A stretch of DNA of 64,000 nt from Verrucomicrobiota bacterium (lineage in GTDB: Bacteria > Verrucomicrobiota > Verrucomicrobiia > Limisphaerales > SXQI01): the NCBI GenBank assembly GCA_033762115.1, contig JANRLX010000067.1, positions 1 through 64,000 on the forward strand, read 5' to 3'. This document shows, piece after piece, positions 652 through 63,413 of this stretch. How positions within the stretch are numbered: position 1 is the first letter of the stretch; each line of letters opens with the position of its first letter. Made by a program: the position numbers and the translations under genes. The notes beneath the pieces were generated by a model. That model was not told the origin of the DNA. It ran no database searches and worked only from the letters and a program-made list of their open reading frames with translations.

Positions 652-669
652 AACTTAAAACTCCTATAA

Positions 670-3600: not shown

Positions 3601-6600
3601 GGTGCCATCCTCATTCAAGAGGGCAATACCAGCTCGTTGTATCGAATTAATGGACAAGAAACCACCTCCAACCACAACTTTTGAGATTAAGGGGTTAGTG
3701 GAGATCACGAGTTCCCCGAGAGTATAAACAGGCCCGTCTGCCCCTGCCCCAATGCTGAAAGTTGAGTCAACAGCACCTGAACGGGTAACCCTGGCCATGG
3801 AACGTCTGGGCAGTCCATCCACATTTTCAAAAGCACCAGCAACAATAATTCTATTGGTACCCTGGAACAGCATCGCCCGGATTGGGCCGTCGAAATCGAT
3901 GTCTCTGGCAAAGGTTGAATCCAGGGAGCCGTCATCATTGATGCGGGCCAGACCCCTTCGGGATTGGTTCTCAACGGTCCTAAATTGACCGCCAAGAATT
4001 ATTTTTCTCGCCTCGCCGGGACCGTTCTCACCCTCAATAAGAAGACTATAAACAATATCATCAACATCAGCAGCAAAATCGAATTCGACATCACCTGCCG
4101 GGATGTTCAGTTGTTCATCATCGAGAATCGTCAAGAGAGCGTTCGTCAAAGCTCCCAATGTTCCAGTGACCGGGTTGCGCAATTGCAAATTAACAGTTCT
4201 ATTGGAATCAGAAACCGAGTCATTCAAGATTGGAACATAAACGATTTTGCTTACCTCGCCGGGCTGGAATGTCAGGAGATTTGTGACTGGGACGAAATCA
4301 ATATTCGGCAACGCAGTTCCAGGTTGTGCTTGAAAGGTGACAGCAGCCTCTCCAGAAGTGCCGTTGCGGCGAATGACCATGATCCCTGCTGAAGTTCCAT
4401 TTTCGTCTGCAATGTAACGATCCACTCCAAACGAAAATTGGCCATAGCCATCATCTTCAAGAATCGTGACTGTTGAGTTGGAGCGACTTCCTAAAGCATC
4501 AGGCTGAGAAGGGTTAAAGAGAATTAATGAAAATTGCTCTGAAGTTTCCACGATTGAATCATTGGAAATTGGAATTTGAATGGTCTTGGGAGTGGTTTCC
4601 TGATCGTTCCAAACCAAAACGCCTGCTGTTTCCGTATAATCGAAAGGCACGGAGGTGCCCGTTGGAAAAGGACCATCCTCAGTCCGATACTCGACCGAGA
4701 GAACTCCGACACTGCCGCCGCTTCGGCGAACCTGAACAGTTGCGAAGCCATTGTTCTCCGCCACGTTAAAGTTGGTTGATGCAAAGTTGATGCGCCCGGG
4801 AAGGTAATCGTTATCAATAATTGTCACGAGAGCGACTGAATTAGTTCCCAGGATGAAGCCTGAAGATGGATTAAAAATTTCGACTCGAAAAGTTTCGTCT
4901 GGTTCAACGAATTCATCGTTTCGAATTTGAAGAGTAAAGGTCCGACTGGTTTGTCCCGGGGCAAATGAGCTTACCAAATTAATAGCGACAAAGTCTGATC
5001 CGGACGCCGCCCCATTGGGGCTGGTTGTCACGGTGCGAATAGCGACCTGACCGCTCGTCCCTGTATTCCCGGACCTTGTCACGCGGATAGTAACGGTACC
5101 TGAGGATTCATCTGTATCGATTTCGGTTTCGGCGATATTCAGCACCGCGGGGCTTTGATCGTCCTCCACAATAGTGACGATTGCTTCTGAGTTTCTCCCA
5201 AAGCCGGGAGCGCTCAGAATGACCTGTCCACCGAGCGTAAATCCGCCAAGCAGTGAATCCAATTCGACTCCGAAGGTTTCATTTCCCTCAATCTCCTCGT
5301 CATCGAAAATTGGAATGAATAATGTTTGAGCGTTGCTATCATCAAATCGGATCAGAGAATTGGTAACAGGAGTGTAATCCCGTCCAATGGTAGCGGAACC
5401 TTCGAAAGTGGAACCATAAACTAGAATGGAACCAGTAATACCAAGAGTTCGGATCACCGGTGCACCCAGGTCACCGCCCGCTTCATCGCTTCCGAACTCA
5501 GCACTGGCAAATTCAACAAGCCCAGGGCTGTAAATTGTAGAGGCAGCGTCCGATAACCGGGCAAAATTCTGCCGTGAATGAACCTCTTCCCGAAAAAAGC
5601 CACCGCCAACCCGTCTGAAAAAGCCGCCTACCAACAAACCCGTGCGATCATGATTGATGGCTCGAATCGATCCATCAAAAACGGTGGGGGCAACGCCGTT
5701 CGGCAGGGGGAATCCTGCATATGCATTTTGAATTGTATCAAGGAAAGTTGGATCAACGGAGCCATTGCTCAAAAGACGGGCCAAATAAAGTCGATGGCTG
5801 CCGTTGTAAACGGTAAATGTCCCTCCAATATAAAGCTCATCACGACCTGCAATGTATTTAACTGTTTGAATAATTCCATCGACTCCTGATCCTGATGAAA
5901 ACGTTTCGTCCAAAGACCCATCAGCGTTTAAGCGGGCCAACGAATTTGCAGATTTCGAATTTACCTCGGTAAAATCACCACCAATTATAATTCTATTTGC
6001 GGAATCCAAAGAGACGCTTAAGACCTGACCATGCACTCCAAGTCCGGGATCGAAGGTCGGATCGGGAGTTCCATTGGCCAATAACCGGGCGATCGATTGC
6101 TGAACCTGACCATCTACGGAAGTGAAGTCTCCGCCCACGATTATACGGCCATTTGCAGCAGGTGAGATGGAGGCCTGAATATTCCAGTTCGCCGTTTCAT
6201 TTGTGTTGGAGACTACGAATCTTAATTGAGTGGAAGAGCCGGGGCCGAAAAACAGATTTGTGGTAATGAAAGTATTGGTTTCATAAGTGGTTTGATCGGC
6301 GTTGGTAACCGTGATGATGGTGTTGGTAATTCCCGTGTCGAACACCAGAGTGTTACCTTGAAAAATCTGGAATCGATCCAGGTCGTCAAATAGATTGTAT
6401 CGAATCGTAATTTGACCGCCCACTGCGCCTATGTCCACGAGTTGATTGAGTGTTGTGTTATTTGTCCCTGAGGCAGAATTGGTGTAGGTAATGGAAGAGG
6501 CCCTCTCGGCATCCAAGGCGAATACCGGGCCATCAAAGCCAAATCCCGGGTTGAAACTGAGGTCAAGTGTCCCGTTCGAAAAAAGACGAGCAATCCCGGG

Positions 6601-7986
6601 AGCCGCTATCCCATCAATTTCTGTAAAATCGCCGCCTACCAGGATCGAGAAATCTCCAAGAATTTTGACGGCGTATATAGGACCATTGGCCCCACTTCCC
6701 GGATTGAAGGTGAGATCTGTTTGACCATTCGAAAGCAATCGAGCGATGCCTCCCCGGCCATGTCCATTGACTGATGAGAAACCGCCTCCGATCAAAACCC
6801 TTCCAGCCAGTGGGCCAAAGGTATAAACATCCACGGAACTGACAAAGTTATCAGCACCTGTGGAAGGGGAGAAAGTTGTATCCAAAGAACCGTCTGGACG
6901 CATTTTTGCAATCCTGTTCCGAGGCACAGAGTTCATGGCGGTGAATTCACCGCCGACAAAGGTCGATCCATCCGGCATTGTGGCGATGGAGAGCACTGTT
7001 CCGTTGGCGCCGGGGTTCAGGAGAAAAGAAGGAGAAGCATTATCCGGATTGTAAGTAATATCCACCGCCCCACCAGGAAGTGCAACATTGGTTCCATTTT
7101 GCGCCAGCAAGGTGACGATGGTAGCCGATATTTCTCCTAGAGAATAATTTATGGTTGTTTGTTCGTTCGCGGCATTGGTCGTGGTCACTGAACCTTGCGG
7201 ATTGGACAGACGCACAGCGAAATCTTCATTAAATTCATATTCAGTAAGGTTGGTTTTAATCAATGGGATGGTGATCGTTTGCTCTCGTTGTCCCGGTTCG
7301 AAGGTTAGGGTACCAGAGGTCGGACTATAATCAGTGTTCTCGTTTGCTATATCGGAGCCAGGGCGAATTCCAGAGTCTAACGGCTCTCCTGAGTCATCCA
7401 CGAGAGTTGATAGATCCACAAGCTCGTAATCGACGCTCACGCCAGATACACCATCTGGAACTGGCGATAAGAGCACGACCTTAATGCTTATATCGCCTGG
7501 CCGATCAGGAAAGTTGTAGTAGCTCTTTTCAAAAATGAACTGAAAATTTGTAAAGGCTGGGATGGTCAGGAAAAACGAATTCGTCTCCAGCGTTGGAGTA
7601 AAACGGGGGTTCTCGTTGGTGGCAACGCGAGGATTGATCAATTTGAAAGCTGCAGTTTGACTATTTGTGGATGGCCTCGCTGAAATCTGGATAAGGTAGT
7701 TCGTTCCGGATTGGTGGTCCCGCATTGCAACTTTGTTCGTGAAAGAGGAAAGAAACGTAACATTGGTTGGCGCCACCATATCAAAGTTGATCAAGCCATT
7801 GGCTGGCAAACGAGTGAGCCCAACTTCATATTGAGTATCATAAGGGCTGAGAAACCATTCGGAATGCGTGAATGCAACGATGTTTTCGTCCTGCGCCTTG
7901 GATACGGAGATTGAAATCAGCAAAAATGCCAGCAGGAAAACCGCTCGCAGAAAGGTCATTTTAAAGGTTCGGACTAGCATAAACAA
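670..7986 (-). CDS. Giant secreted surface protein: about 8 Calx-beta domains, three blocks of delta-60 (DUF5122-type) beta-propeller repeats, C-terminal ...FYRV domain
   Basis: Signal peptide; repeated 'QPDGKIxxGGxFT..G..R.RIARL..DG.LD.TF.PG.GA.G.V' blades; 'DY....GTLTF.PG....I.I.I..D...E.NE.F.V.L.NP' Calx-beta motifs. Exact start codon uncertain. Confidence 0.9.
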   Translation of the reverse strand: MFMLVRTFKMTFLRAVFLLAFLLISISVSKAQDENIVAFTHSEWFLSPYDTQYEVGLTRLPANGLINFDMVAPTNVTFLSSFTNKVAMRDHQSGTNYLIQISARPSTNSQTAAFKLINPRVATNENPRFTPTLETNSFFLTIPAFTNFQFIFEKSYYNFPDRPGDISIKVVLLSPVPDGVSGVSVDYELVDLSTLVDDSGEPLDSGIRPGSDIANENTDYSPTSGTLTFEPGQREQTITIPLIKTNLTEYEFNEDFAVRLSNPQGSVTTTNAANEQTTINYSLGEISATIVTLLAQNGTNVALPGGAVDITYNPDNASPSFLLNPGANGTVLSIATMPDGSTFVGGEFTAMNSVPRNRIAKMRPDGSLDTTFSPSTGADNFVSSVDVYTFGPLAGRVLIGGGFSSVNGHGRGGIARLLSNGQTDLTFNPGSGANGPIYAVKILGDFSILVGGDFTEIDGIAAPGIARLFSNGTLDLSFNPGFGFDGPVFALDAERASSITYTNSASGTNNTTLNQLVDIGAVGGQITIRYNLFDDLDRFQIFQGNTLVFDTGITNTIITVTNADQTTYETNTFITTNLFFGPGSSTQLRFVVSNTNETANWNIQASISPAANGRIIVGGDFTSVDGQVQQSIARLLANGTPDPTFDPGLGVHGQVLSVSLDSANRIIIGGDFTEVNSKSANSLARLNADGSLDETFSSGSGVDGIIQTVKYIAGRDELYIGGTFTVYNGSHRLYLARLLSNGSVDPTFLDTIQNAYAGFPLPNGVAPTVFDGSIRAINHDRTGLLVGGFFRRVGGGFFREEVHSRQNFARLSDAASTIYSPGLVEFASAEFGSDEAGGDLGAPVIRTLGITGSILVYGSTFEGSATIGRDYTPVTNSLIRFDDSNAQTLFIPIFDDEEIEGNETFGVELDSLLGGFTLGGQVILSAPGFGRNSEAIVTIVEDDQSPAVLNIAETEIDTDESSGTVTIRVTRSGNTGTSGQVAIRTVTTSPNGAASGSDFVAINLVSSFAPGQTSRTFTLQIRNDEFVEPDETFRVEIFNPSSGFILGTNSVALVTIIDNDYLPGRINFASTNFNVAENNGFATVQVRRSGGSVGVLSVEYRTEDGPFPTGTSVPFDYTETAGVLVWNDQETTPKTIQIPISNDSIVETSEQFSLILFNPSQPDALGSRSNSTVTILEDDGYGQFSFGVDRYIADENGTSAGIMVIRRNGTSGEAAVTFQAQPGTALPNIDFVPVTNLLTFQPGEVSKIVYVPILNDSVSDSNRTVNLQLRNPVTGTLGALTNALLTILDDEQLNIPAGDVEFDFAADVDDIVYSLLIEGENGPGEARKIILGGQFRTVENQSRRGLARINDDGSLDSTFARDIDFDGPIRAMLFQGTNRIIVAGAFENVDGLPRRSMARVTRSGAVDSTFSIGAGADGPVYTLGELVISTNPLISKVVVGGGFLSINSIQRAGIALLNEDGTVDLTFNPGSGVQGTVFALAVQPDGKIIIGGDFTSVGGTPQSGIARLNSNGTIDTNFNAGLGVAGTVRAIKLQPDGKILIGGLFNSVSDVPFNSIARLESTGALDSTFNPGPGVDGPVYALDLQPDGKIIVAGDFTKFGEASQNRILRLNPNGTLDTSINFGSGANGFIAAVKIQSDRRIIVGGNFTKINDIPRSHFARLFGGSISGSGEFEMALPTINVNESGTNAIVTIRRRGGTEGNASVSYVLSGESAFPGSDYIETNATVEFLSGEASKTINLLLLDDNIAEQDESFLVTLTNAAGASIISPRQPFTRVIIVSDDSLVSFAQTQYSASEGALGNFITIRVVRTGKTLEPVTVVYSTVGGSATAGVDYVSQTGTLTFQPNQENQFFTVNILGDESVEGNESVTLRLDEVIGNGSLGLRTATLTIYDDDFAPGVLSFENGLLISEGSGTASVVVRRESGVTGAVSVDYIITPLTASTDDFSASSGTLTLIDGQASQSIPVQITGDSAPEGNESFLVELTNPTGGAMLGNSVLLVTIVDDDFGAGSFDQTFNIGNGADGAIAAVKIQPDGKLVIGGDFDAFNGFSAPGVARLLPNGSIDNSFLAGGGAAGSVFTVDTAPDGKVAVGGGFTTFDGAVRNRVSLLSTNGFLDPAFFKSAGINGPVYAVAVQPDGQIIVGGSFSNPSPNLIRLNVDGSHDVSFDVEGGAKGAVRSLLLQPDGKILVGGSFTNIAGTTRRGFARLLSSGRIDPVFATGSGANGTVFDIARTEGGNILLAGEFTSVNGTPRNRVARLEQNGAVDTTFTPAAGPNGTVLAVAVQQDGKVLLGGEFSSVTGTNRTRIARLLNTGALDTTFDPGSGADDSVLDIHVQADRQILVAGAFFTLNGFPSPGIGRLNGDLDPAHTEITITNVVITAQGAISFGFLTETGKNYQIQGSTDLEQWTTIQPVSGTGSTTTFSETIGAIGTHKFYRVMLVP

Positions 7987-8183
7987 TTTTCAAAAATGGG
8001 CCTGCAAAATAAGCACAGGTCGTACCGGGTTTTCCAAAATTGAGCGGCTTAAATAAGGCGAAAATCCGAGCTCAATTGCAAGCTGTAATTGCCTGTTTTC
8101 CAAAGGGTAGGACTGAAAAAAAGCAAAACCTCTCTTTGATCCCATGATTGTTTTGTGGGTGAACACAATGTAAAAGGCCAGTA

Positions 8184-8789
8184 TCATATTAATCTGGAAG
8201 GCTTTGACAAGTCCTCAATCAGTTGTTTGGCCTGTTTTTTTTGAAGTTCTCTCCTCCCTTCCGTCCATATGACAAAATCAGAGCGTAAAATTTTTTCCTC
8301 GATTGGAAGTTGGGCGCTTATCCGTCCTGCAATGTGGGTTTTATTCCAACCTCTTTCCTCCAGGCGGCTCTGCTGAGTTTCCCGCGTGCAGGCCACGCAG
8401 ATAACATGAGAAAATTCACCCTCCGCGCCGGTTTCGAAGAGCAATGGAATGATCACTGCAGCCATGGCATGCCGCTGCGTGGTCCATTGCTGAATTGTTT
8501 CCCGCCAGGATGAACGAATGGCTGGATGTAAAATGGTTTCGAGTTTAAGGCGAGCTGATGAATCGGAGAAAACAAGGGCGGCCAGAGCAGCCCGGTTCAA
8601 GGTAAAATCAGGATGGAAAACGAAATCTCCGAAGGTCTCATGAATTTTCTGCAACGATGGCGCACCGGGTTGGGTCAGGTTTCGGGCCAAATCATCGGTA
8701 TCAATCAAAGGGATTCCAAAAGATCGCAATGTCTCTCCGACAGTGCTTTTTCCCATTCCGACTCCGCCTGTAATCCCAAAACAATTCAT
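8184..8789 (-). CDS. coaE: Dephospho-CoA kinase
   Basis: GITGGVGMGKST P-loop, IDTD, LNRAALAALVF, LETILHP, IPLLFE motifs. Start reassigned to the ATG at 8789. Confidence 0.93.
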   Translation of the reverse strand: MNCFGITGGVGMGKSTVGETLRSFGIPLIDTDDLARNLTQPGAPSLQKIHETFGDFVFHPDFTLNRAALAALVFSDSSARLKLETILHPAIRSSWRETIQQWTTQRHAMAAVIIPLLFETGAEGEFSHVICVACTRETQQSRLEERGWNKTHIAGRISAQLPIEEKILRSDFVIWTEGRRELQKKQAKQLIEDLSKPSRLI

Positions 8790-8831
8790 TCGATATAACC
8801 CAGGCGGTCTCGAAGAGAACTGAATCACTTC

Positions 8832-8864
8832 AAAGAAACAGCCGATCGTTGGGACGGCTGTTTC
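8832..8864 (-). terminator. Probable intrinsic terminator after the 1031-aa gene
   Basis: Perfect 10-bp inverted repeat GAAACAGCCG (8835-8844) / CGGCTGTTTC (8855-8864). On the minus strand the hairpin runs into UUUCUUUG. Confidence 0.55.
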
Positions 8865-8882
8865 AGAGAAATCTGGTCGCTA

Positions 8883-11800
8883 TTAAGGAGCGACTTTGAC
8901 CCGATAATAACGCCCGGAACTGCTTGATTGAAGAGAGTGAGGCAAGGTGACGGCCTGACGTTGTCCACCTGAATGAGTATAGGTGGTGACATTATGCCAG
9001 AGAGTTCCTCCGTTGAGTTGCAGATTATCAGTATATTGCAAAATGTAAGTGATGGATGGGGAAGCACTGAAGGTGACCAGGGCAGTGGTCCCTGCGGATG
9101 TTTCCTCAAAGGCAACGCTCAACAAGCGAAGCTCGGTGAGTTGATTGTCGAGAGGAAAGTCATCCAAACCATTGGCAATGCCATCCTGATCGGAATCAAT
9201 GATGCGGCTTTCGCGAAGAGATCTGTTAAGGCGTTGGCTGGTTCCGTCAAGCCGTGCGACATCGACTGAACTGTTTGGGCCAACTGCTTCAGGAACCCAG
9301 ATCAATCTGCCATTACCGAATTGTCTGCCGTTCAGAATTTCAGCAGTCACTCCCGGATTTGTGGAAACCAGATCAGCATAGTAGATGTCTATGTTGGCAT
9401 CCAACGTGAGGCCCTGGTAAATGTTTGTAATCCTGAGGTTTCCAGTCAGATTGGTTGATTGAGCCAGCCATCCGGTGATCTGCAATAAATCAACGTAGAT
9501 GGCTCGGTTCGGACCCGCTCCATGAAAAGCATATCTGGCCTGTTCCTCCCCACCTAAGATCAAATGGCCAATGGGCGTATTGGTTCGGAAAGCGCCTGGC
9601 AAAGGACCGACATCCGGCGCGGCCCAGGTATGGTGAGAAGTAAAGAACTTACGGCCCGCAGACTCAATGCGTGTACCCAGGAGTGTTCCCAAGGGAGCAA
9701 CACGGGTCATGTTAAAACCATTGCTTGAGCGCCAGATATTGGGAGCGGCCAGTTCCAAATCCTGAATGGAACCAGTGACATCGATGTTAATGGCACCACC
9801 CGCCAAAATGCGGTGATTGGAAAATTTCAGCACGTTACCGGCGAGTTCAACATCTCCGCCAGTTGTGAAAATGCCATCTTCGATTTTGCCCACTTCCGCA
9901 TTGATTCGAATTGGTCCAATGCTTGGAATGAATGCATTGGTAATAAAAAAGCCAAAACGGTTACTGAAGATGAGTGTTTCAGCCTGACCGGAACGAATGT
10001 CCCCCCGATTCTCGAAATATGAGCTGTTAATCAAATGGCTGAAGGCGGTCATGGTTCCGTCATTCACGAAATTTGTGTAGCGGATTCCATCCTGGTATCC
10101 GAAGTCGCCGAGCCCGCGAATAGCAAGAAACCCTTCCTCTGTAATAGTGAGACTTTTCAAGGTGGGCACGTTCGTGCGCCCCCAAGCGCTGGTGGAGAGG
10201 GTAATGTCACTATCAATGGTTACATTTTCACCTCGAAGTTCGAAGATGTTCGAAATGGACATGTTATTACGCAGGAAAATGTTTTCCGCCCTGGCAGTAA
10301 AACGGTCAATCACGACCGGCTTGAAGGTGATCAACCCCGCAGCGTCCACCAATGTGATGTGGTAGGCCACGTTGATTATATTGGTCACGAGGGTATTGGT
10401 CCCATTCACCACGTTGGTGACGATTTGCCCGGTTTGGTTTGTCCATGCACTGCTCCACAACTGAATTGCACCGTTGAGCCGCTCGACCGTTTCACGGGTC
10501 AGGTTTTCGACGCGTAATGGACGGTTATTGTCTGTTGAACCAAGCGCAAAACTTACATTTTCAACATCGATCACACTGTTGGAGTTCCCCAGAAGATTAT
10601 CGGTATTGATCGAGACGAGCCCTTCACCTCGAATGCGAGTACGTGTGAGATCAAGATTTGTAGCGACAATTTCCACCCGGCCAGGGAAGTTGGTGACGGA
10701 GAGGCCTGGAACTGGTTGAACTCTTTGAGCCATGCTGTCGATTTCCGCTGCGTAGGCAGCGTAACTGGCATTGGTAATGACAATGTTCGACATTGAAGGA
10801 TCAAAAAAGAATGTGGGGGTGAGGAGGGCGTTGGCTTCAAACCCAAAATCGTAAACACAAGGTTTGCTGCGAGCTATGACATAAGTGGCAGGCCTGAATC
10901 CAGCATACAAAACATTTGGGATGACATTGAAGTTGGTTCCTTCCGCCAGCTGGTCCACGATATAAAGCGTGTTCAACTCAGGTTCTTCGGTGATCGCATT
11001 GGTTAAGACAGCTGCAAGTTCAATCACAGGGGTTAGGAAGCCGTTATTGTTTGGTAAATCTCCATTCGGAAATGTCAGCGGGAGAAAACGGACATCAGGA
11101 AAGACCCTTGGGTCGCTGGTTTGCACAAACACAGCCTGGCGGATTACATTCGTCCCGTTAACGAGGTTGGTGAGAATAAAACCAACACCGTTTTGAATTT
11201 GAACAATTTGCCTGAAACCTCCCAGAGCATTTGTCACTGGGTGCGATGGCGATACCACTGAGGGAGAAAGGTCCTGCAGTAAGAAAGGAAGAACCAGGTT
11301 TGTTTCAGTCCCCATGCCCCAGAAAAGATCATAAACCCCGGTTTCCGGGAAAAAATTGGATTCACTGAGAAAAAAGGAATAAAGACCTGGATCACAATCA
11401 AAGAAAAATCCACCAAAGGTGCCAGCCCTTGCAGATCCAACGCGATCAACAACAATTTTGCTGTCCCGAAGCACCACGTTGTTTCCACGCAAGCGGATCA
11501 GCCCGGCGGGCCCTACAGCGATGGTGCCCTGATTTTCCAGCGTATCAGCATTGATTCGAACTCCGGAAAATTGCGATTGAAACGTGTTTACCAAAAATGC
11601 ACCTGAGTCGCCACCGGTCCTTAAAATGGATCCAAAACTATCAAGGGATTCCAGAACTCCGATTTGAGTATTGATGAATCTTTGTGCGGGAGTCCGCATT
11701 CCGGTTTCTGGATCAACGGTGTCCAACTCGAACCCGATATTGGCCTGCATAAGACCGTTGTTGGTAAAAATTCGGGTATTTTGTGTGTCAAATGGAACTG

Positions 11801-11978
11801 TTGAGCTAGAAAGGATCGAAAAAAGGCCGTTGTTGACGAATACTTCCGCATCAACGTTCACATTGGTGGCGGTGCCGTTGTTTACATAAATCGGCGCGGG
11901 TTGAGCCAACAGTGGGAGGGATGCCAAAACCGAGAAAATAACTGTAATGACGCTCTTCATGTTTATCAGGGCCTTCAC
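8883..11978 (-). CDS. Secreted beta-helix-like (adhesin/haemagglutinin-like) protein with a DxDxDG motif and C-terminal ...YYRV domain
   Basis: Signal peptide (SLPLLA-Q); beta-strand 'F.N.G.I' repeats (FVNNG, FTNNG, LENQG, FVNDG, FENRG); DSDQDGIANGLDDFPLD; C-terminal YILQYTDNL...W...GRYYRVKVAP. Confidence 0.75.
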   Translation of the reverse strand: MKALINMKSVITVIFSVLASLPLLAQPAPIYVNNGTATNVNVDAEVFVNNGLFSILSSSTVPFDTQNTRIFTNNGLMQANIGFELDTVDPETGMRTPAQRFINTQIGVLESLDSFGSILRTGGDSGAFLVNTFQSQFSGVRINADTLENQGTIAVGPAGLIRLRGNNVVLRDSKIVVDRVGSARAGTFGGFFFDCDPGLYSFFLSESNFFPETGVYDLFWGMGTETNLVLPFLLQDLSPSVVSPSHPVTNALGGFRQIVQIQNGVGFILTNLVNGTNVIRQAVFVQTSDPRVFPDVRFLPLTFPNGDLPNNNGFLTPVIELAAVLTNAITEEPELNTLYIVDQLAEGTNFNVIPNVLYAGFRPATYVIARSKPCVYDFGFEANALLTPTFFFDPSMSNIVITNASYAAYAAEIDSMAQRVQPVPGLSVTNFPGRVEIVATNLDLTRTRIRGEGLVSINTDNLLGNSNSVIDVENVSFALGSTDNNRPLRVENLTRETVERLNGAIQLWSSAWTNQTGQIVTNVVNGTNTLVTNIINVAYHITLVDAAGLITFKPVVIDRFTARAENIFLRNNMSISNIFELRGENVTIDSDITLSTSAWGRTNVPTLKSLTITEEGFLAIRGLGDFGYQDGIRYTNFVNDGTMTAFSHLINSSYFENRGDIRSGQAETLIFSNRFGFFITNAFIPSIGPIRINAEVGKIEDGIFTTGGDVELAGNVLKFSNHRILAGGAINIDVTGSIQDLELAAPNIWRSSNGFNMTRVAPLGTLLGTRIESAGRKFFTSHHTWAAPDVGPLPGAFRTNTPIGHLILGGEEQARYAFHGAGPNRAIYVDLLQITGWLAQSTNLTGNLRITNIYQGLTLDANIDIYYADLVSTNPGVTAEILNGRQFGNGRLIWVPEAVGPNSSVDVARLDGTSQRLNRSLRESRIIDSDQDGIANGLDDFPLDNQLTELRLLSVAFEETSAGTTALVTFSASPSITYILQYTDNLQLNGGTLWHNVTTYTHSGGQRQAVTLPHSLQSSSSGRYYRVKVAP

Positions 11979-11980
11979 TG

Positions 11981-14506
11981 TTATGGATTCGCCACGGTAT
12001 TTGTGAACACACGATTAGCCAAGTCCTGAAGTGAGAGGTCTTGAGGGTAAACTATAGGCGGTCTTGAACTTCCGTCAAATGACCCCCAGGTGAAAGTTCG
12101 CTGAGCATCTGCTTCAGTGATAAAGCCGGGAAAAATATTGAAATAGCCTGGTCCCACTTTGTTGAAGGTAATCGTGACTTGCGGGGTAATAATACCAGGT
12201 CCGGCCGCCTGTCCCCCTTGGCCTTGCGCGCCATTGTTAATCCACCCTGATGTGTCAGTGCGAGAAATAGAAACAGGCTGCGCGATATCAGTGAAAGTCC
12301 CCAAGTCACGTGCTGAGAATAAAATATCGGGGCCGGTGCTGACTCGCCGGAATCGTTGCGGCACAAAAGTTCCATTCGTCAGAATGGAAACGGTGTAATC
12401 ATTGGTAATGGTGATAAAATTTTCATTCAAAATATCGTTGGTGTTAAACCGACGTAAGCGGATTGAGTCGATACCCGGTCTCAGCGCCAAGAGACTACCT
12501 GCCTGAAAGTTGATTGGAAATGCCTGACAAAACTCACTTTCGAATGGATAGATGATTTCCCGCCTGACGCCCTGCCCTGTAATGACGTTCGTCAGGTCTG
12601 AAATCACGTTCGTCAGGAAAACGATTGTTGAGAAACAATTCGTTGTGACAAACAGGTTGGGATCATTGATTGTAATTGTTCCCAGAGGAAATGGCGATGA
12701 AATGATCTGCGTTGTTACTATGGGAGCCCCAAGCAAACTGAACTCAATGGTCCGCAAAATCACGTCAGGATTTGGGCCTCCTGGCGGGAAATTTGTCGTC
12801 ACATTTCCGAATTGATAACCAAACTGAACGACAAAGTTCGTTGTCAGGTTGGTGACCACAAAACTGGAATTGGCGTTCGCAATTTCAATGGGATAAGCCG
12901 CGTAAACGGTGTTTGTGAAGGTCAAAACCAAATCCTGTCGAACCAGATCACCTGTGATGCTGTTGGTGGTAAAGAAGAGAAAGTTGGTTGTTCGAACCAG
13001 ATTTTGCAGAGTGAGGAGCGGGTTGCCAAACTGATCTGTGAAACTATAACCCACGAGGTTGGGGTTCTGGGTCCGATCAAAGATGTAAAAGCCGCCACTG
13101 GGGAAATTCGTCGGAATAAAAGTGCTGGTAATATTGGTCCTAAAAATCGTGAACGGAGGAGGGGGTCCCCAAGGTTCGGCAATTAAATTGGTGGTTAAAA
13201 TTTCAAGGAAGGTCGTTGGAGAGACATAGTTCGTGACCAGATTTGCGTAAGTATAGGAGTAAAGAGTAATGATGTTGGTGACGTAATTGGTTACAAACCC
13301 GAAATTGGTTTGATTGGGTGGTCCCCAGGGATCAGGAGGGAGATTCGTTAAAACAATGCTGTCAACTGAAACCAATAATCCGGGTCGGGTGTTGGTGCTC
13401 GCAATTAACAGAGTGGGATAAAGAGCGCGCAACTGCGCTGGAGAACTGGTCAGGCTTTGCTGGGAAAAGAGGAAAAGATCAAGATTACTGATGATCTGGA
13501 GATTGGAGAAATTGGTAAATAATTCACCTTGAGCAATGTTCGTCACCACAATATTGGTGCTTACAATATTTGAAATAAATACATTACTGCTGATGATTGT
13601 GAGATTGGAGTAAAGAGCCAGTAATGCAGTGGGAGAACTCGTCAGGGTTTGACTGGAGAACAGGGCCAGATCAATGTTAGTGATGAAAAGAGGGTTCCCA
13701 AAGTTTGTGGAAGCAATTAATGTTCCTGGATAGACATCCTCCCGGTTAATGTTGTTCCGCTGGTAAATATATTTTAAACCTGCGACGTCGTCGCGAGTCA
13801 GCGCACTAAAGAATTCCCCAGTACCTAAATTGGCAGCGAAGAGGCCGTCAACTGTGCTGGAAACGGCAGTGAACGAGATGGCATTTGCATCAACAGGAAA
13901 CTCAATTGCATCTGTAAAATCGGGTGCAGTAAAAAAGAAAAGCCCGTAAGTGTACCTAACATCATTGACATAATTGGTGGGCTCCGGATTGCCGAAAGGA
14001 TCGAAATTCCGCTGAATTACAAAGTAATTAGTGGATGGGGCAGGATCAGTAATTTGATTTCTTAAGGTAAAAACATACCGCTCGGCTGAGGCGAGGCCGA
14101 ACTCTTCCGTCAACGCTCCCATGGCCATTGATTTTAAATCGATCAAACCGAGCGCTTCAGCGGTGAAATTGACCCGCTTGGTACGGACAGGAAAATTACT
14201 GACGTCCAGTGCAGCCAGATTGGTCATTCGATTAAACTGGGCAATTGCCTTTTCAATTTCGGCAACTCCCTGAACACCGAAATAGTCAACGAATGCCTCG
14301 TCAAACCCGTAATAAATGACCGGCAAATTCCAGCGATATTCCTCACCCAGATTTTTGGGGCCACCAATATCTGTGTTATTAGGATTATAACCCAATGCAG
14401 GGGTTTGCCATGCTTCAAATGGTCCAAGCAGCGCGAAGCCATGCGCGGTGAGAGATGCACCGAAGACCAGGAGAGCAGCAACTAAATTTCTGAAACCTTG
14501 AAGCAT
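11981..14506 (-). CDS. Secreted Thr-Asn-rich protein with a degenerate matrixin/metzincin-like N-terminal domain
   Basis: Signal peptide (LTAHG-F). DLKSMAMGALTEEFGL sits where HExxHxxGL is expected, and LTRDDVAGLKYIY matches the terminal matrixin helix. Internal repeats follow. Confidence 0.7.
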   Translation of the reverse strand: MLQGFRNLVAALLVFGASLTAHGFALLGPFEAWQTPALGYNPNNTDIGGPKNLGEEYRWNLPVIYYGFDEAFVDYFGVQGVAEIEKAIAQFNRMTNLAALDVSNFPVRTKRVNFTAEALGLIDLKSMAMGALTEEFGLASAERYVFTLRNQITDPAPSTNYFVIQRNFDPFGNPEPTNYVNDVRYTYGLFFFTAPDFTDAIEFPVDANAISFTAVSSTVDGLFAANLGTGEFFSALTRDDVAGLKYIYQRNNINREDVYPGTLIASTNFGNPLFITNIDLALFSSQTLTSSPTALLALYSNLTIISSNVFISNIVSTNIVVTNIAQGELFTNFSNLQIISNLDLFLFSQQSLTSSPAQLRALYPTLLIASTNTRPGLLVSVDSIVLTNLPPDPWGPPNQTNFGFVTNYVTNIITLYSYTYANLVTNYVSPTTFLEILTTNLIAEPWGPPPPFTIFRTNITSTFIPTNFPSGGFYIFDRTQNPNLVGYSFTDQFGNPLLTLQNLVRTTNFLFFTTNSITGDLVRQDLVLTFTNTVYAAYPIEIANANSSFVVTNLTTNFVVQFGYQFGNVTTNFPPGGPNPDVILRTIEFSLLGAPIVTTQIISSPFPLGTITINDPNLFVTTNCFSTIVFLTNVISDLTNVITGQGVRREIIYPFESEFCQAFPINFQAGSLLALRPGIDSIRLRRFNTNDILNENFITITNDYTVSILTNGTFVPQRFRRVSTGPDILFSARDLGTFTDIAQPVSISRTDTSGWINNGAQGQGGQAAGPGIITPQVTITFNKVGPGYFNIFPGFITEADAQRTFTWGSFDGSSRPPIVYPQDLSLQDLANRVFTNTVANP

Positions 14507-14509: not shown

Positions 14510-16423
14510 TTATCGGATGCGGATCACGCGGTAGTAGCCCAAGCTGGTCACACCAGTGGCAGGGATTGAATCAGTATGGCCAACGGCAAACCGTGGCAGG
14601 CCTACATTTTCCCAAACAGGCGTATTGAGGTTTTGATTGGATTGAACCTGGTAGAGCAATCCAGGCTGGGTGTTCCAAACCAATCGGAAACCTTGCTCAG
14701 TCAGCTGCATCTCCGCAGCAAGCACGCTTGCAGGATCTGTCGGGTTGGTCCCGGCAAGAAATTCCTTGTGGTTGGATGCGCCATCTCCATCAGAATCAGC
14801 AGTTGAAGATGGCCATTTTGCACTTTCCAAACCCCAATAAACCTGCTGCCAATCATCTGGAAGGAAATCATCATTCAAATCCTCACCCCAGGTTTTTCCC
14901 ACGCCAGCGTCTGACATTGGCGAACGACGGCCATCGCTCAGCTGATAGAGCAACCGGAAGGAATGTTCACTGCCAGGAGCAAGGCCGGTGATCGTGCGGG
15001 TTTGGTTGGTCAAAAGAATTGGAGTTGCGCTGCCATCAACAAACAATTCAAAGTGGTCAATTTCCAACCCATCATAGACTGGCCATGTCACGCTGAGACG
15101 GCTCTGACTCAAGGCAGAAACGTACGGTGCCGAAGGGACAAGCAAGGGCACTTGGTCCAGCGTTTGATAGAAACGCTGAGCGGCGATATCAAAACCGGAA
15201 TTCAAGCCACTGAATGTTGTCCACGCCACCACGAAGCGACCTGTTTCATCGCTCCCAACAGTTGGGTGCATTTGTTTGCTGATAACGGTTGTGTTGACGC
15301 GAAACTCGTCTCCGATAGGGTCGGCACTGGAATTCAGAAAACGGCCATAAACACCTTCCTGCGACCCATCCTGTTCAAAGCTCATCCAAGCCAGCAAAAG
15401 GTTTCCACCACTGTTGGCAATGGCGGGACTGATCTGGGCCATTGACCTGGTTTGATTAATCACGCGAGGGGGTGTGATGGCAGTGCCATTCAGGGAAAAA
15501 GAAGCTGCAACAATGTCCCAGGCATTGGCGTCACCACCTTCTTTGATCTCTGTCCAAGCCACCACGAAACGGTTGAGTCCAGTCGGGGCGATTTTTGGAC
15601 TGGAAGCGAGATTATCCGTGCTGTTGAGCCTGAATTCATCGCTCAATGGATTACCGGCCTCATCAAAAAAACGGGCATAAATATCCACACTTTTTCCATG
15701 ACGTTGTCCTTCACTGATCCATGAAACGAGAATGCGGCCATTCGGAAATGCGGCAACAGAGGCGGAACGTTGATTTAATAGGTAATGTTGATTGATGCGG
15801 AACTCGGGGCCGGATTTGATTCCTGTCGAGGAAATCAACTGAGCAAATACGCCGCTCATGCTTCCATCCTGTCCCCGCGCACTCCAAACGACGATTGCAC
15901 CGCCATTGGGGAGACTTGCCAAAGAAGGTTCGATCTGTTCAATGGCAGCATTTCCACTGATCTGAAAATCCTGGGAGGTAAAAATCCCACCTGATCCAAG
16001 AATCCGGCCGAAAATTCGTTGCTGTCCAAATTCTCCACCCTGCCAGACGAAAAGTGTCGATCCATCCAACAATCTGGCTGCCTGTGGATTTTGCTGGTCC
16101 CCTTCTCCGATGCTGTTCACACGGAAAGAGGATTGACCCCCGGCAAAGGTTGGGGTCAAACGTCGAGCGCTGATCCCCATACCATCGCCATCAGCGACAT
16201 TATCCTCGTATACCAGCACACCTCCGGTCACATCAAGGGCGAGCACGGGACGGACCTGATCGCCTTGTGAGGAGTTTCCAATGAAATATTCGGTCCCTTC
16301 CTTTAACAGTCCGGGACTCGCTGAAAACGCCAAAGGGGCGAGAGCGCATGTGATGGTTGCGCTGATAAAACAGCGTCCAATTTTGCGCCACTTATCTTTG
16401 GTCGTTAAGAAAAGGAAACTCAT
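14510..16423 (-). CDS. Secreted protein: propeller-like repeats, FN3-like domain, DxDxDG motifs, C-terminal ...YYRV domain
   Basis: About 7 repeats of 'EF..N......Q..P.VA....G.FVVAW'; FN3-like SQSRLSVTWP...ITGLAPGSEHSFRL; DSDGDGASNHKEFLAGTNPTD; GLLYQVQSNQNL...W...GYYRVIRIR. Confidence 0.8.
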   Translation of the reverse strand: MSFLFLTTKDKWRKIGRCFISATITCALAPLAFSASPGLLKEGTEYFIGNSSQGDQVRPVLALDVTGGVLVYEDNVADGDGMGISARRLTPTFAGGQSSFRVNSIGEGDQQNPQAARLLDGSTLFVWQGGEFGQQRIFGRILGSGGIFTSQDFQISGNAAIEQIEPSLASLPNGGAIVVWSARGQDGSMSGVFAQLISSTGIKSGPEFRINQHYLLNQRSASVAAFPNGRILVSWISEGQRHGKSVDIYARFFDEAGNPLSDEFRLNSTDNLASSPKIAPTGLNRFVVAWTEIKEGGDANAWDIVAASFSLNGTAITPPRVINQTRSMAQISPAIANSGGNLLLAWMSFEQDGSQEGVYGRFLNSSADPIGDEFRVNTTVISKQMHPTVGSDETGRFVVAWTTFSGLNSGFDIAAQRFYQTLDQVPLLVPSAPYVSALSQSRLSVTWPVYDGLEIDHFELFVDGSATPILLTNQTRTITGLAPGSEHSFRLLYQLSDGRRSPMSDAGVGKTWGEDLNDDFLPDDWQQVYWGLESAKWPSSTADSDGDGASNHKEFLAGTNPTDPASVLAAEMQLTEQGFRLVWNTQPGLLYQVQSNQNLNTPVWENVGLPRFAVGHTDSIPATGVTSLGYYRVIRIR

Positions 16424-16464: not shown

Positions 16465-17055
16465 TCAGGGCTGACCAGGTTCGATTGGTTTCTGGGTTGG
16501 AACAGTGTTTGGGTCGTAAGGAAGATTATTTTCAGGGTGGACGCGGTTACCAGCTGGATCGATGATTGTTGGAGTGACAAAGACAACCAGGTTTTTCTTG
16601 CTGCTACTGGAGGATTCGCTGCGGAAAAAGCGGCCCAAAAGTGGAATATCTCCCAAAACAGGAACCTTGTCTTTGGTTTTGGTCACGTTTTCAGCAATCA
16701 ATCCGCCCAAATAAATGGTCTGGCCGTCCCAAACGACTGCGGTAGTGGTCACTTGTCGAACACGGAAACGGGGTAACGGAGTTGCCTGAACTGGTTGGTT
16801 TCCGACAACAGTCTGGAATTGCCGAGCGGAGTCGGTGTCATACCCGAGGAATTCCGTCAAAGTCGGCACGATGCTCATCTGGATGGTATAGCCATCAGCA
16901 GAGACGTAGGGAATCACGTCCAGAACCGGACCAAAGGGAATTTGCGCAGGCACCGGAGTCACCGCTGGAATCACCTGGGGTTGTTGCACCACCTGAGCAT
17001 GCAGAACAGTTGTAAGCACTGCTGCAAAGGCCAATTTGAAAATTTGACGCTTCAT
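16465..17055 (-). CDS. Secretin C-terminal half with its own signal peptide
   Basis: MKRQIFKLAFAAVLTTVLHA-Q, then GPVLDVIPYVSADGYTIQM, VWDGQTIYLGGLI, KVPVLGDIPLLGRFFRSE, NLVVFVTPTII: classic C-terminal secretin motifs. Confidence 0.9.
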   Translation of the reverse strand: MKRQIFKLAFAAVLTTVLHAQVVQQPQVIPAVTPVPAQIPFGPVLDVIPYVSADGYTIQMSIVPTLTEFLGYDTDSARQFQTVVGNQPVQATPLPRFRVRQVTTTAVVWDGQTIYLGGLIAENVTKTKDKVPVLGDIPLLGRFFRSESSSSSKKNLVVFVTPTIIDPAGNRVHPENNLPYDPNTVPTQKPIEPGQP

Positions 17056-17067
17056 GGTTTAAATAAA

Positions 17068-19353
17068 TTAGTTGCCTACACCAGTGACACCACCTGCAGC
17101 CACTGCACCACCGCCGCCACCAAGACCCTGAACACTCAAACCAACAATAATGGTCTGGGTGTCTTCAACGGCGATACGGGCTTGCCTCCCACTAACAGTT
17201 GTCACGCGAGGAGCGGAGAGAAGGTCAACCCCACCGCGTTGTTCCAATGCACGGATGACGACGCGAAATTGAGGATCGGTTAAAATGCCAGTGAGTGTTG
17301 CCACTTCAGGCGCGCTTTGCCGCAGGCCGGTGGTTAATAATTGATCTGAGGTTAAGCGGGTTGGCTGGGAAGGAACCCCAAAGGTTCCTGGGAAAACGCC
17401 GGACGGATTGGCAAAGGAGCTACTGTCACGGTATGAAGGAGCAGTGCCACCCTGGACTCCAATATCCCCGTTCCGCATCAATGTATTACCAAGGAACCAA
17501 TCGAATCCGACTGCTTTGCTGTCATTTTGGCCGATTTCAGCAAATTTGGCCTCGATGGTGACCTGAGGAGGGGTAACATTGAGGGCCTGGATGGCTCCCT
17601 CAATAATATCCAGATCACGCAGCGTCGCACGAACGAAAAGCACCCCGGTACGGTCATTAAAAAAGAGGGCTTTTTGTGGTGGCGTAGGTTGACCCGTGAA
17701 TCCAGCGCCTGCTGTGGTTGCGGTATTGTTGGTTGCAAAATCCACACCGGCTGCAATGAAGAAGTTCCTGACTTCATCCTGAATGTTGAACATTAAATTC
17801 GTGATCGTGACAGATGTGATTCCTCCGCCTGTTTGACCTCCGGCCCCTCCAGCACCACCGCCGCCACCCTGTTGGCCGTTAATTCCACCGCCGAAACTGA
17901 AGAGACCTCCGGGCCCTCCGCCTTGTCCATTCTGACCATTTTGCCCGCCACCTCCAACACCCCCGCCGCCGCCACCACCGCCTGCCCCGCCAGCTCCACC
18001 TTGCGCAGTCACAAAGCCCTGGAAAGGGTTAAACGTATAGCTCATACCCTCAAGACCCTGCTTGAATGTATTGGGATCAACCCGGAATGTGCGACTGTAA
18101 AGTTGATCCGGTTCAATCTGCCTTTGGCTGAACACGACTGCATATTCTTCAATGGAATATTTCAGCGCAATGTTCTGATTTTGACCTGAGCCAGGTTTAG
18201 CCACTCTGACTATTGCGTCCAGAACATCAGCCAGCCGGACATTCCGAAGTGGAGGATCCATCTTAACTGTAAAATCCTCAATGACAACAGGTTGATCCGA
18301 CTGCGGCTGCTGTCCAAGCGGCTGCCCGGTGAGTGGATCAACAGCGCCGGGAAAACCGCCGGCCGCAGGGTTAAACAAGGCCGGGCCTGGTTTATCCAAT
18401 TGCGAGCTGATAATAAAATTGATGCCGCGACGGTCTGGATCCCGTTTTCGAGCTTCGGCGCTCAATTCTTTAATGACTTCAATGAGAGGAATGTCTGAAG
18501 GCACCAGCCATTCATCGAGAATGATTCGGTCCAGCTTGGTGCTGATTGCCTGACGTCCCGGACTCGTATAAATGCGATTGGTGCGGGCATACGGATTGGC
18601 TTCAGGTAATAATTCCCGCTGAATGGGATTGTGCCATTTTTGTTCCACTTCGACCAGCATGTCCTTGGCAGCGATTTCCCGTTTACGGGCTTCCTGGGCG
18701 TAACGACGTTCCTTGATGAGATTCAGATAATAGAAGGCTGCACGATGTTCGGGATCCTCCTTGACGGCTTGACGCAGACGTTCTTCGGCTTCGTCCAATT
18801 TGCCAGTTTCCATCAAAAGGCGCGCATCCTGCACAAGGGTCGAAGTTTTCACGCGTTCCGCGCGAATTTCATCAACCCTTGCCAACTGCTCCCTGCTTGG
18901 AACGCGACCGGCTTGCTCGGAGATTTTTTTATCGAGAGCGGTCTTAAATTGTTGTGCTTCCAAATTTCTGGGATCGACCGTGAGAACTCGAGTTACCTGC
19001 TTGTCTGCTTCAGCCAAGTCCCCTCTTCGTTCTGCGCGGCGAGCGAGCTCCATTCGCGCTTCAGTCAATCCGGCCAGTGTTTCGGCACTTTCCTGGTCCA
19101 CTCCCAAACCAATTCGCTGGACGAGAGTGTAGGCATCCTCAAATTGACGGGCTGCCTCAACAAGATCGTTCTTTTGCCGAGCTGCTGCCGCTTCCGCAAG
19201 TGTGCGCCTTAATTGAATTGTATTTGCCTGGCGTTTCGCAGCTTCTTCACTGGCAGCCTGGGAGGCCAACTCGGCCGCGGATTGAGCATTGGCTCGCGGG
19301 GCTGAACCGCAAAGGGCAATGGCAATCAATATGGTAGTAACTACTTTAATCAT
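17068..19353 (-). CDS. Secretin N-terminal part (TPR-like region, N domains, first secretin strands); PilQ/GspD, Amuc_1098-like
   Basis: Signal peptide; TPR-like helices; Gly-rich loop; FNDRTGVLFVRAT (N3); PPQVTIEAKFAEI; ALEQRGGVDLLSAPRVTTVSGRQARI. Stops mid-domain. Confidence 0.88.
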   Translation of the reverse strand: MIKVVTTILIAIALCGSAPRANAQSAAELASQAASEEAAKRQANTIQLRRTLAEAAAARQKNDLVEAARQFEDAYTLVQRIGLGVDQESAETLAGLTEARMELARRAERRGDLAEADKQVTRVLTVDPRNLEAQQFKTALDKKISEQAGRVPSREQLARVDEIRAERVKTSTLVQDARLLMETGKLDEAEERLRQAVKEDPEHRAAFYYLNLIKERRYAQEARKREIAAKDMLVEVEQKWHNPIQRELLPEANPYARTNRIYTSPGRQAISTKLDRIILDEWLVPSDIPLIEVIKELSAEARKRDPDRRGINFIISSQLDKPGPALFNPAAGGFPGAVDPLTGQPLGQQPQSDQPVVIEDFTVKMDPPLRNVRLADVLDAIVRVAKPGSGQNQNIALKYSIEEYAVVFSQRQIEPDQLYSRTFRVDPNTFKQGLEGMSYTFNPFQGFVTAQGGAGGAGGGGGGGGVGGGGQNGQNGQGGGPGGLFSFGGGINGQQGGGGGAGGAGGQTGGGITSVTITNLMFNIQDEVRNFFIAAGVDFATNNTATTAGAGFTGQPTPPQKALFFNDRTGVLFVRATLRDLDIIEGAIQALNVTPPQVTIEAKFAEIGQNDSKAVGFDWFLGNTLMRNGDIGVQGGTAPSYRDSSSFANPSGVFPGTFGVPSQPTRLTSDQLLTTGLRQSAPEVATLTGILTDPQFRVVIRALEQRGGVDLLSAPRVTTVSGRQARIAVEDTQTIIVGLSVQGLGGGGGAVAAGGVTGVGN

Positions 19354-19385
19354 GGGCTTGGTTTTTTCGAAAACGAGGACTGAAA

Positions 19386-21156: not shown

Positions 21157-21162
21157 ATCCAG

Positions 21163-35754: not shown

Positions 35755-35912
35755 ATATTTCCCTTTATCTTTGAATCCGCAGCCTAAGGAAACCCGATAT
35801 CTGTTCTATAGTAGCCTTAAATTGTCAGCATTTTTGTAAAGCTCAAGTCACAGATTGCTTGGAAAGACACTTGCAATACACACAAGGATTATCCCAATCT
35901 TGGCTTTCAAAT

Positions 35913-58374: not shown

Positions 58375-58393
58375 TGCCGTATTGGAATCGCTC

Positions 58394-60166: not shown

Positions 60167-60200
60167 AAAATAGATCGAATGGTTATTTGATGTGTGATGG

Positions 60201-61292: not shown

Positions 61293-61322
61293 AATGATGT
61301 CCTATTCGTTTGGTTTCAGTTG

Positions 61323-62966: not shown

Positions 62967-63413
62967 ATTAAGCTCCGTCCCGGGGTGTCTCTTTGTCGTC
63001 ATATTCCTCATGCGTGACGGGAAATGTCGTCTCCATGACACGTTTGGAACGCCAGATCGTAGGATGCCAAGCGACTTTGAAGGCAGGTAAGCGTTAGCAG
63101 TTCGCACAGAACTATTGCGTGACTTCTTCTGGGGAGACCGTGACAGTATTCGGCTAGCCTAGAGCTATCCTGTAACTTGACTGGCCGATTAACCGGCGCG
63201 GAAAAATGCGACTAGAAGTTCCTGCGAAAGGAGGTTGCTACAACTCAACAACTCAAAAGGGCGTGACGAGATAACAAGAAAATGAATAGGTTCGAAACAA
63301 CCGAAGATCGATAACTGATTGAGGATTGAAAATTGAACAAACTGAACTTCGAACTACGAAAAAAAAGGCTGCCCAAATTCGGCCGAGGAAGCCTCCTAAT
63401 TTGGTTTCATGCT

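Follow-up and report, generated by a model that had tools for sequence, protein, structure and literature searches.

Enrichment of the Dipeptide Thr-Asn in Sec-Exported Proteins of a Verrucomicrobial Lineage, a Candidate Motif for Periplasmic Modification

INTRODUCTION

O-glycosylation at D-(S/T)-(A/I/L/V/M/T) in Bacteroidota is described as the only known motif-driven O-glycosylation of bacteria, with Glu not tolerated in place of Asp and with an oligosaccharyltransferase that the same source describes as undiscovered (PMC12871550). Here we report an excess of the dipeptide Thr-Asn (TN) in exported proteins of a Verrucomicrobiota bacterium of the order Limisphaerales. The excess was found through two genes at positions 8883 to 14506 of a 64,000-nucleotide stretch of DNA (contig JANRLX010000067.1), which is referred to as the window and corresponds to contig C67 in an assembly of 134 contigs and 3.92 Mb (GCA_033762115.1; G000), a genome of soil type. 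The names of matched families and homologs likewise point to the Verrucomicrobiota. The TN excess resembles the Bacteroidota system in the very short motif, the confinement to non-cytoplasmic proteins, the spread over a whole lineage and any fold, and the strict residue identity. It differs in its motif, T-N, which admits only Thr and lacks an acidic residue, and in the phylum. The evidence for the TN motif consists of sequence statistics.

Human TMEM260 is described as O-mannosylating Thr on beta strands of beta-sandwich domains, and its lumenal TPR domain is proposed there to serve in client selection (PMC10214176). TMEM260 (DUF2723; CAZy GT117) and TMTC1-4 combine a GT-C membrane module with TPR, as does a gene of the window. 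The animal enzymes differ in serving one domain class each from monophosphate-linked mannose, and no T-N rule is reported for them. TMEM260 is the only characterized DUF2723 member, and no characterized bacterial member was found in the open-access literature. N-glycosylation (N-x-S/T; D/E-x-N-x-S/T for PglB) is comparable in its short Asn motif, its exported substrates, its GT-C enzyme and its lipid-diphosphate donor. Recurrent Asn in surface proteins is also a feature of the Asn ladders of beta-helices and LRR proteins, which need a fixed period in a solenoid. The Listeria surface protein p60 (iap) has recurrent T-N in the form of a tandem low-complexity (TN)n array, whereas TN in the proteins described here is dispersed and the DNA is nonrepetitive. 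Nothing relevant was returned by searches of the open-access literature on a T-N sequon, on glycoproteomes of Verrucomicrobiota or on dipeptide biases of secretomes.

RESULTS

TN counts in proteins encoded by the window

A preliminary description of this stretch of DNA reported roughly 30 TN dipeptides, by hand count, in an 841-amino-acid (aa) protein and a recurrence of TN in two larger proteins. The three genes are as follows.

11981-14506, minus strand: P0001, exported 841-aa protein with no Pfam or NCBIfam family
8883-11978, minus strand: P0002, exported 1031-aa protein with no Pfam or NCBIfam family
670-7986, minus strand: exported 2438-aa protein with Calx-beta / DUF5122 (delta-60) repeats (Pfam), located beyond coaE from P0002

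Expected counts were calculated for each protein from its own Thr and Asn content, and z scores were obtained from 300 shuffles. P0001 contained exactly 30 TN against 8.5 expected (observed/expected ratio [O/E] 3.5; z 8.5) and 5 NT. Twenty-six of the TN were located within residues 260 to 720, a region modelled as long beta hairpins. TN was followed by x-S/T at just 4 of the 30 sites, in agreement with the remark that many sites lack such a continuation (26 of 30). TN counts were 22 versus 7.8 expected in P0002 (z 5.5) and 33 versus 14.8 in the 2438-aa protein (z 5.1), and a syntenic homolog of the latter in G002, a genome of the same family, had 36 versus 19.2. The near absence of TN noted for ClpB and two PilT ATPases was also borne out, with no TN in ClpB (33154-35754; 1.2 expected) or in either T2SSE/PilT-type ATPase (45211-46416 and 46433-47524; 1.2 and 0.7 expected).

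Genome-wide enrichment of TN in exported proteins

The proteome-wide O/E comparison proposed in the preliminary description was performed on 3191 open reading frames (ORFs) of at least 100 aa. Among 683 proteins with a signal peptide and no further transmembrane (TM) segment, 1806 TN were observed against 1011 expected (O/E 1.79), and exclusion of the first 30 residues of each left 1766 against 985 (z 24.9). The 1996 proteins with neither a signal peptide nor a TM segment had 1354 against 1303 (O/E 1.04). The ratio for TN in exported proteins was second to that for CH alone among all dipeptides. Other pairs in this class lacked an excess (SN 0.94, TD 0.89, TQ 0.71 and VN 0.91; IN likewise was not enriched), and NT was depleted in exported and cytoplasmic proteins alike (O/E 0.75). 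Spaced pairs in the exported class were at 0.98 for T-x-N, 1.01 for T-x-x-N and 1.15 for N-x-T. As NT, T-x-N and T-x-x-N showed no excess, overall composition and local T- or N-rich patches were excluded, and the counts, based on the proteins' own composition, refuted Thr and Asn content alone as the cause. These results narrowed the selected [T/S]-N site proposed at the outset to T-N, the S-N part being dropped; modification at such a site would be a further step, which is weighed in the Discussion.

The two known sequons were close to expectation, which agreed with the earlier statement that TN is distinct from both. The O/E of N[^P][ST] was 1.07 among exported proteins and 1.00 among cytoplasmic ones, the values for D-[ST]-[AILVMT] were 0.88 and 0.96, and DT and DS were not among the enriched dipeptides. 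Tripeptides containing TN made up 14 of the top 30 in exported proteins, and their flanks were varied. Ser and Gly were mildly favored before Thr, as were V, T, P, F and I two residues past Asn, and K, E, D and C were depleted at every flanking position.

An excess was present in every length class of exported proteins (O/E 1.58 to 2.12), including those of 100 to 200 aa (1.89) and 200 to 400 aa (1.58). Cytoplasmic proteins of up to 800 aa were at 0.95 to 1.04, and the few longer ORFs were at 1.23 and 1.61. TN exceeded expectation in 375 of the 683 exported proteins (55%) and in 674 of the 1996 cytoplasmic ones. Omission of the top 10, 20, 50 or 100 proteins, ranked by their excess, reduced the exported O/E to 1.59, 1.49, 1.32 or 1.09, respectively, an exclusion that is biased downward by construction. 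Overall, it is essentially certain that the TN enrichment is real, goes beyond composition and is specific to exported proteins.

The O/E for CH in exported proteins of G000 was 3.0 (121 observed), which fits a large number of c-type cytochrome CxxCH sites. The tripeptides DGK, PDG, DGS and DGT were also strongly enriched in this class.

Codon usage and DNA repeats

The codons used for TN in G000 matched background usage and were the same in exported and cytoplasmic proteins, indicating that selection acts on the protein. Analysis of positions 8883 to 14506 with Tandem Repeats Finder detected a single 21-bp repeat in two copies. The observation that the codons vary, and hence that TN is not a DNA repeat, was therefore upheld. 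One exception to background usage was common to both classes, namely, avoidance of ACT before AAY. The Thr codon ACT made up 3% of those preceding Asn codons and 19% overall, and its avoidance there would avert an out-of-frame TAA.

TN and the route of export

Sets of proteins with twin-arginine translocation (Tat) signals were defined by motif alone. Proteins with a strict twin-arginine motif and a hydrophobic h-region (n = 33) had 21 TN against 26.9 expected (O/E 0.78), the union of two strict Tat motifs (n = 58) had 37 against 47.7, and one protein per BLAST cluster (n = 34) gave 28 against 27.3. Sec-type proteins of 250 to 600 aa (n = 339) had 559 against 357 (O/E 1.57). The strict sets replaced two earlier definitions: a loose one (O/E 1.73), which was contaminated by large Sec-type proteins, and a BLAST expansion of DUF1501 and DUF1800, which yielded just two members each.

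Conservation of TN in homologs

All 43 aligned full-length homologs of P0001 (37 to 44% identity) carried 21 to 38 TN, compared to 5.9 to 10.0 expected. Fourteen of the 30 sites in P0001 were TN in at least 30 of the 43 homologs, and T531-N532 was present in every one, with varied flanks. Among P0002 homologs, 80 of 80 had a TN O/E of 1.6 to 4.1, and in an alignment of 30 sequences conservation was 47.9% at the TN sites of P0002 versus 15.6% for all dipeptides. The O/E was at least 1.43 in all 121 proteins of a set comprising the P0001 homolog family and P0002. One P0002 homolog (P0206) is labelled as coming from a metagenome-assembled genome (MAG) of "Candidatus Sulfopaludibacter" (Acidobacteriota), a label that could reflect a binning error or gene transfer; the other named homologs are all verrucomicrobial.

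A different pattern was observed for an exported 902-aa TPR protein with 19 TN against 3.1 expected. Its 11 orthologs (26 to 34% identity) all retained 9 to 21 TN, compared to 1.3 to 3.1 expected. Four of the 19 sites were TN in at least 8 of the 11 orthologs and 5 were unique to the query; at the remaining sites TN alternated with ordinary P-x loop residues, indicating that the number of TN is kept while the sites turn over. Comparison of G000 with G002 detected retention of TN at 28 of 76 positions (37%) in 19 pairs of exported orthologs, versus 22.5% for all dipeptides. In 74 pairs of cytoplasmic orthologs, 22 of 62 TN (35%) were kept, versus 43.9% for all dipeptides. We conclude that T-N is a selected short linear motif in proteins exported unfolded via Sec in this lineage.

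Distribution of the excess among lineages

Comparison genomes were analyzed with the same pipeline over about 400 kb each (about 340 kb for G088). G002 had O/E values of 1.48 in exported and 1.00 in cytoplasmic proteins. Representatives of four other orders of the class lacked an excess in exported proteins (G045, 0.63; G094, 0.91; G100, 0.92; G088, 0.93), even though the G088 secretome is more T- and N-rich. ClpB-neighborhood loci of other phyla had 66 TN against 63.2 expected in 94 exported proteins (1.04). Two genomes of other classes, G063 and G047, had exported O/E values of 1.98 and 2.30. This excess came from a few proteins, such as those with "IDtnG" repeats beside RHS-like genes, and was not secretome-wide; it was therefore not counted as the same phenomenon. 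Distant homologs of the TPR protein had one TN in a MAG of Pirellulaceae (Planctomycete) and none in a MAG of Verrucomicrobiales. Orthologs in G063, G047, G094 and G045 lacked TN at almost all G000 sites, the exception being one DUF4340 site in G094. The extent of the phenomenon across the order rests on G002 and three protein families.

A locus of G047 (C2:660001-680000; L198) contained, at about positions 600 to 13100, two RHS-like ORFs followed by three exported proteins of 227 to 289 aa. Each of the three had six TN, placed within a recurring turn motif, "ID-TN-G" or "S-TN-G". In this other class of the phylum, the TN excess thus has a source that is specific to one family.

Folds and structural placement

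Of the 20 proteins from outside the window that ranked next in TN enrichment, 16 had a Pfam match and 4 had none. The families represented included Calx-beta, RHS, subtilase, LamG, TPR/YfiO, GSDH, DUF4340, beta-helix, AsmA/DUF748 and sortilin/BNR. In the AlphaFold2 (AF2) model of P0001 (predicted local distance difference test [pLDDT] score, 74), both residues of TN were in a strand at 17 of the 30 sites. The model consisted of hairpins with strands of roughly 7 to 24 residues and lacked a solenoid, and the spacing of TN was irregular (e.g., 317, 322, 331, 371, 387, 400, 406, 410 and 425). The TPR protein was all-helical (AF2; pLDDT 88.6). Ten of its 19 TN were in inter-helix loops, which account for 24.7% of residues; 5 fell at one of the first four positions of a helix and 4 were inside helices. 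Calx-beta repeat sequences had TN in place of the polar loop pairs that are usual in the consensus of this repeat. Across these families and models, the TN excess is thus independent of fold. An Asn ladder, put forward in the preliminary description as an alternative to a modification site, did not survive as a general explanation, given the irregular spacing, the lack of a solenoid in the model and the excess in an all-helical protein.

A Foldseek search of the PDB with the P0001 model returned no match at an E value of 0.001 or below. The best VIA result had a Z of 4.1, with weak matrix metalloproteinase (MMP)-like rows for residues 56 to 250, and the ESM Atlas provided a lead to a Peptidase_M10 cluster at 0.79. 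Despite these weak MMP/metzincin-like rows, no HExxH was present in the P0001 sequence.

A candidate GT-C operon in the window

About 21 kb from the TN-rich genes, the window contains a group of genes that may encode the synthesis and transfer of a lipid-linked sugar.

35859-38945, plus strand: 1028-aa membrane protein with an N-terminal TMEM260-like (DUF2723; PF11028) GT-C module and C-terminal TPR families
38962-40131, plus strand: GT4-type GT-B glycosyltransferase (Pfam)
40128-41132, plus strand: WecA/MraY-type polyprenyl-phosphate sugar-1-phosphate transferase (PF00953; Pfam)
41133-42038, plus strand: S-adenosylmethionine (SAM) methyltransferase (Pfam)

The GT-C gene matched PF11028 with 33.4 bits (cutoff, 24.2) at residues 75 to 227, with a genome-level E value of 2.2e-9. 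Its product has eight hydrophobic segments within residues 31 to 423 and TPR family matches at about residues 700 to 1000. The match covers profile positions 20 to 173, so that the first extracytoplasmic loop, which holds the catalytic Asp (D52) in TMEM260, falls outside the alignment; the Asp of a "GWDW" motif follows the first TM segment. On this evidence the product is a candidate lipid-linked-sugar transferase, and we infer its link to TN.

Full-length orthologs of the GT-C protein were detected at an E value of 1e-20 or below in 39 of the 41 genomes of an order sample that included G000. In G002, genes for GT4 (57% identity) and the PF00953 protein (56%) follow the ortholog, and in G008 and G016 a PF00953 match is located about 1.5 kb downstream of it. 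The cluster of GT-C+TPR, GT4 and PF00953 genes was thus conserved in four of four genomes of the order examined, by coordinates in G008 and G016. In three of three genomes outside the order (G063, G047 and G045), PF00953 genes were not adjacent to DUF2723 genes and no cluster was found. To our knowledge, the pairing of a DUF2723 GT-C with a diphosphate-type initiating transferase has not been described before. Searches for STT3/PglB/AglB (PF02516) yielded no match at an E value of 0.001 or below in four of four genomes (G000, G002, G063 and G094), while a control search was positive in four archaea.

The presence of a DUF2723 gene was considered as a predictor of the TN excess across eight genomes, with exported O/E values of 1.79, 1.48, 1.98, 2.30 and 0.63 in those with the gene and 0.91, 0.92 and 0.93 in those without it. 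It was rejected because G045 is a counterexample and because the excess in G063 and G047 comes from a few proteins. A DUF2723 gene was detected in 1 of 14 control genomes, that of Bacteroides thetaiotaomicron. G000 has a second, canonical copy at the end of contig C36, where the neighbors, a sigma factor and a DNA methylase, are uninformative.

DISCUSSION

The explanation that we favor, at a probability of about 0.4, is that a lineage-specific periplasmic system modifies Sec substrates and uses T-N as its acceptor or recognition motif. The behavior of TN is most like that of a sequon: the pair is exact and has a direction, it is tied to one compartment, one export route and one lineage but to no particular fold, and its number is maintained although some of the sites turn over. 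A T-N sequon would be read on an unfolded or flexible chain after Sec translocation, comparably to the reading of D-(S/T)-(hydrophobic) in Bacteroidota general O-glycosylation. Glycosylation would be the most plausible chemistry, with a GT-C enzyme transferring a sugar from a lipid carrier to Thr, or to Asn, and the candidate enzyme would be the TMEM260-like GT-C with TPR, in its conserved operon with GT4 and a WecA-type initiating transferase. The WecA-type neighbor would suggest a diphosphate-linked donor. The fuller proposal, in which the order runs a general T-N glycosylation of Sec-exported proteins by a DUF2723 GT-C+TPR transferase supplied by the neighboring WecA-type and GT4 genes, is rather doubtful, as is the specific assignment of this GT-C as the TN transferase.

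A number of points weigh against modification. We infer a covalent change at TN from sequence statistics, and we know of no enzyme that reads T-N. The statistics were obtained from ORFs called by a simple longest-ORF rule and from crude signal-peptide and TM rules of our own making. The excess is concentrated, with at least three TN in 25% of exported proteins versus 16% expected. Conservation of the TN sites of P0001 and P0002 is high, as would also be expected if they had a structural role within beta strands, and in these columns Ser almost never replaces Thr, which beta-strand propensity could explain. A folding or chaperone motif would account just as well for the contrast between Sec and Tat proteins. 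Loops of polytopic proteins gave a parameter-dependent result: with a lenient setting the TN O/E was 1.45 inside and 1.16 outside, and with three stricter settings the direction was the opposite (1.09 to 1.24 inside and 1.40 to 1.93 outside). The link of the GT-C operon to TN is a co-occurrence in one clade, which is phylogenetically confounded and is not evidence of causation, and G045 carries a canonical DUF2723 copy and yet shows no excess. Furthermore, the need of Sec export for O-mannosylation by GT-C enzymes is described as disputed (PMC11727336).

The excess could instead reflect a noncovalent recognition or folding motif of proteins that fold after Sec export, to which we assign a modest chance. 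TN would then be a site for a lineage-specific periplasmic chaperone, sorting or quality-control factor, or would form turns or caps that speed folding. Such a role is consistent with an excess that goes with the Sec route and is not seen in proteins with a Tat motif, which are folded before export, with the independence of fold and the frequent placement of TN at helix starts, in loops and in strand segments, and with the depletion of charged residues and Cys at all flanks and the conservation of sites between orthologs. It is opposed by the lack of any chaperone known to read a polar dipeptide and of an identified candidate factor, by the confinement to one order, which would not be expected of a generic folding aid, and by the TPR family, in which alternation of TN with P-x shows that the fold has no need for TN at those sites.

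An intrinsic structural element (an Asn ladder, a strand or a capping motif) of the abundant beta-rich surface proteins of this lineage is improbable as the explanation. In its favor, the TN of P0001 and P0002 are among the best-conserved residues and mostly lie in predicted strands, V, T, F and I are enriched two residues past Asn, and the largest excesses occur in big beta-rich repeat proteins. Against such an element, the spacing is nonperiodic without a solenoid in the model, the same excess is seen in the all-helical TPR protein and in small exported proteins, and orthologs of the same fold outside the lineage lack TN at the corresponding positions; nor are VN, IN and SN enriched, and T- and N-rich secretomes of other orders are at an O/E of 0.9. 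It is very improbable, and already largely refuted, that composition, internal repeats, gene calling or a DNA-level bias produced the excess as an artefact. Such a reading could draw on the many internal repeats of the top proteins (e.g., 20 Calx-beta stretches with 101 TN), on the O/E of 1.09 that remains after the biased exclusion of the top 100 proteins, and on the crude calling of ORFs and signal peptides. The expectations were, however, based on own composition, with no excess for NT, T-x-N or T-x-x-N; all exported length classes show the excess, TN codons match background without a DNA repeat, and independent homologs in public databases have the excess as well. The same pipeline gave about 1.0 on seven control sets.

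If T-N is indeed a glycosylation motif, this would be, besides the N-glycosylation of the PglB type, only the second general protein glycosylation of bacteria to be driven by a sequon, the other being the O-linked system of Bacteroidota. If, in addition, the DUF2723 GT-C is its transferase, bacterial DUF2723 proteins would count among the protein glycosyltransferases, which would put the family forward for the missing transferase of Bacteroidota. A sequon of this kind would be novel in three respects: its discovery purely from proteome statistics, its restriction to Sec substrates and its restriction to a lineage. It would provide a testable prediction, a mass shift on TN peptides, together with a candidate enzyme family without a characterized bacterial member. 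Contrasts of dipeptide O/E among Sec, Tat and cytoplasmic proteins would also offer a recipe for detecting hidden modification systems. Even if TN is unmodified, a two-residue motif conserved across folds solely in Sec-exported proteins needs explaining.

Neighboring genes and other features of the window

The genes upstream of P0001 encode a repeat protein and a pilus-like cluster.

14510-16423, minus strand: 637-aa protein with a bacterial TSP3 repeat (weak TSP3_bac and Amuc_1099-family matches)
16465-23034, minus strand: type IV-pilus-like cluster (Amuc_1098-1101-like) with PilM-like and Amuc_1100-like genes, a 265-aa ORF and a secretin divided between two ORFs

The 637-aa protein had no TN excess (2 versus 1.9 expected). 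In all 9 of the 9 loci of relatives, its homolog came immediately upstream of that of P0001, and a P0002 homolog followed downstream in all 4 loci with a long enough flank. The module of these three genes adjoins the pilus-like cluster, and this arrangement is conserved in relatives. The preliminary description had extended the recurrence of TN to the secretin and the DUF2723 protein. The cluster was at chance, including the secretin pieces (3 versus 2.0 and 0 versus 0.7), so that the claim failed for the secretin; it held in a mild form for the DUF2723 protein (6 versus 2.6; z 2.3).

NCBIfam scores in the cluster were below the curated cutoffs (Amuc_1101, 485 versus 650; Amuc_1100, 59.9 versus 180; Amuc_1098, 220 and 121 versus 750), and the proteins are thus relatives of the Akkermansia proteins and not equivalogs. 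The Amuc_1098-like secretin (16465-19353, minus strand) was present as two ORFs in the same frame with two TAA stops between them. The downstream ORF of 196 aa contained most of the secretin domain and had its own signal-peptide-like start, MKRQIFKLAFAAVL. The arrangement looks like a true split and not a simple frameshift.

Toward the end of the window, a phage-integrase-family gene (56878-58374) was followed by three ORFs without a Pfam match. One of these, a 594-aa ORF at 61323-63107, had 6 TN against 1.7 expected (z 3.7). The region from 56878 to 63107 may represent a mobile element.

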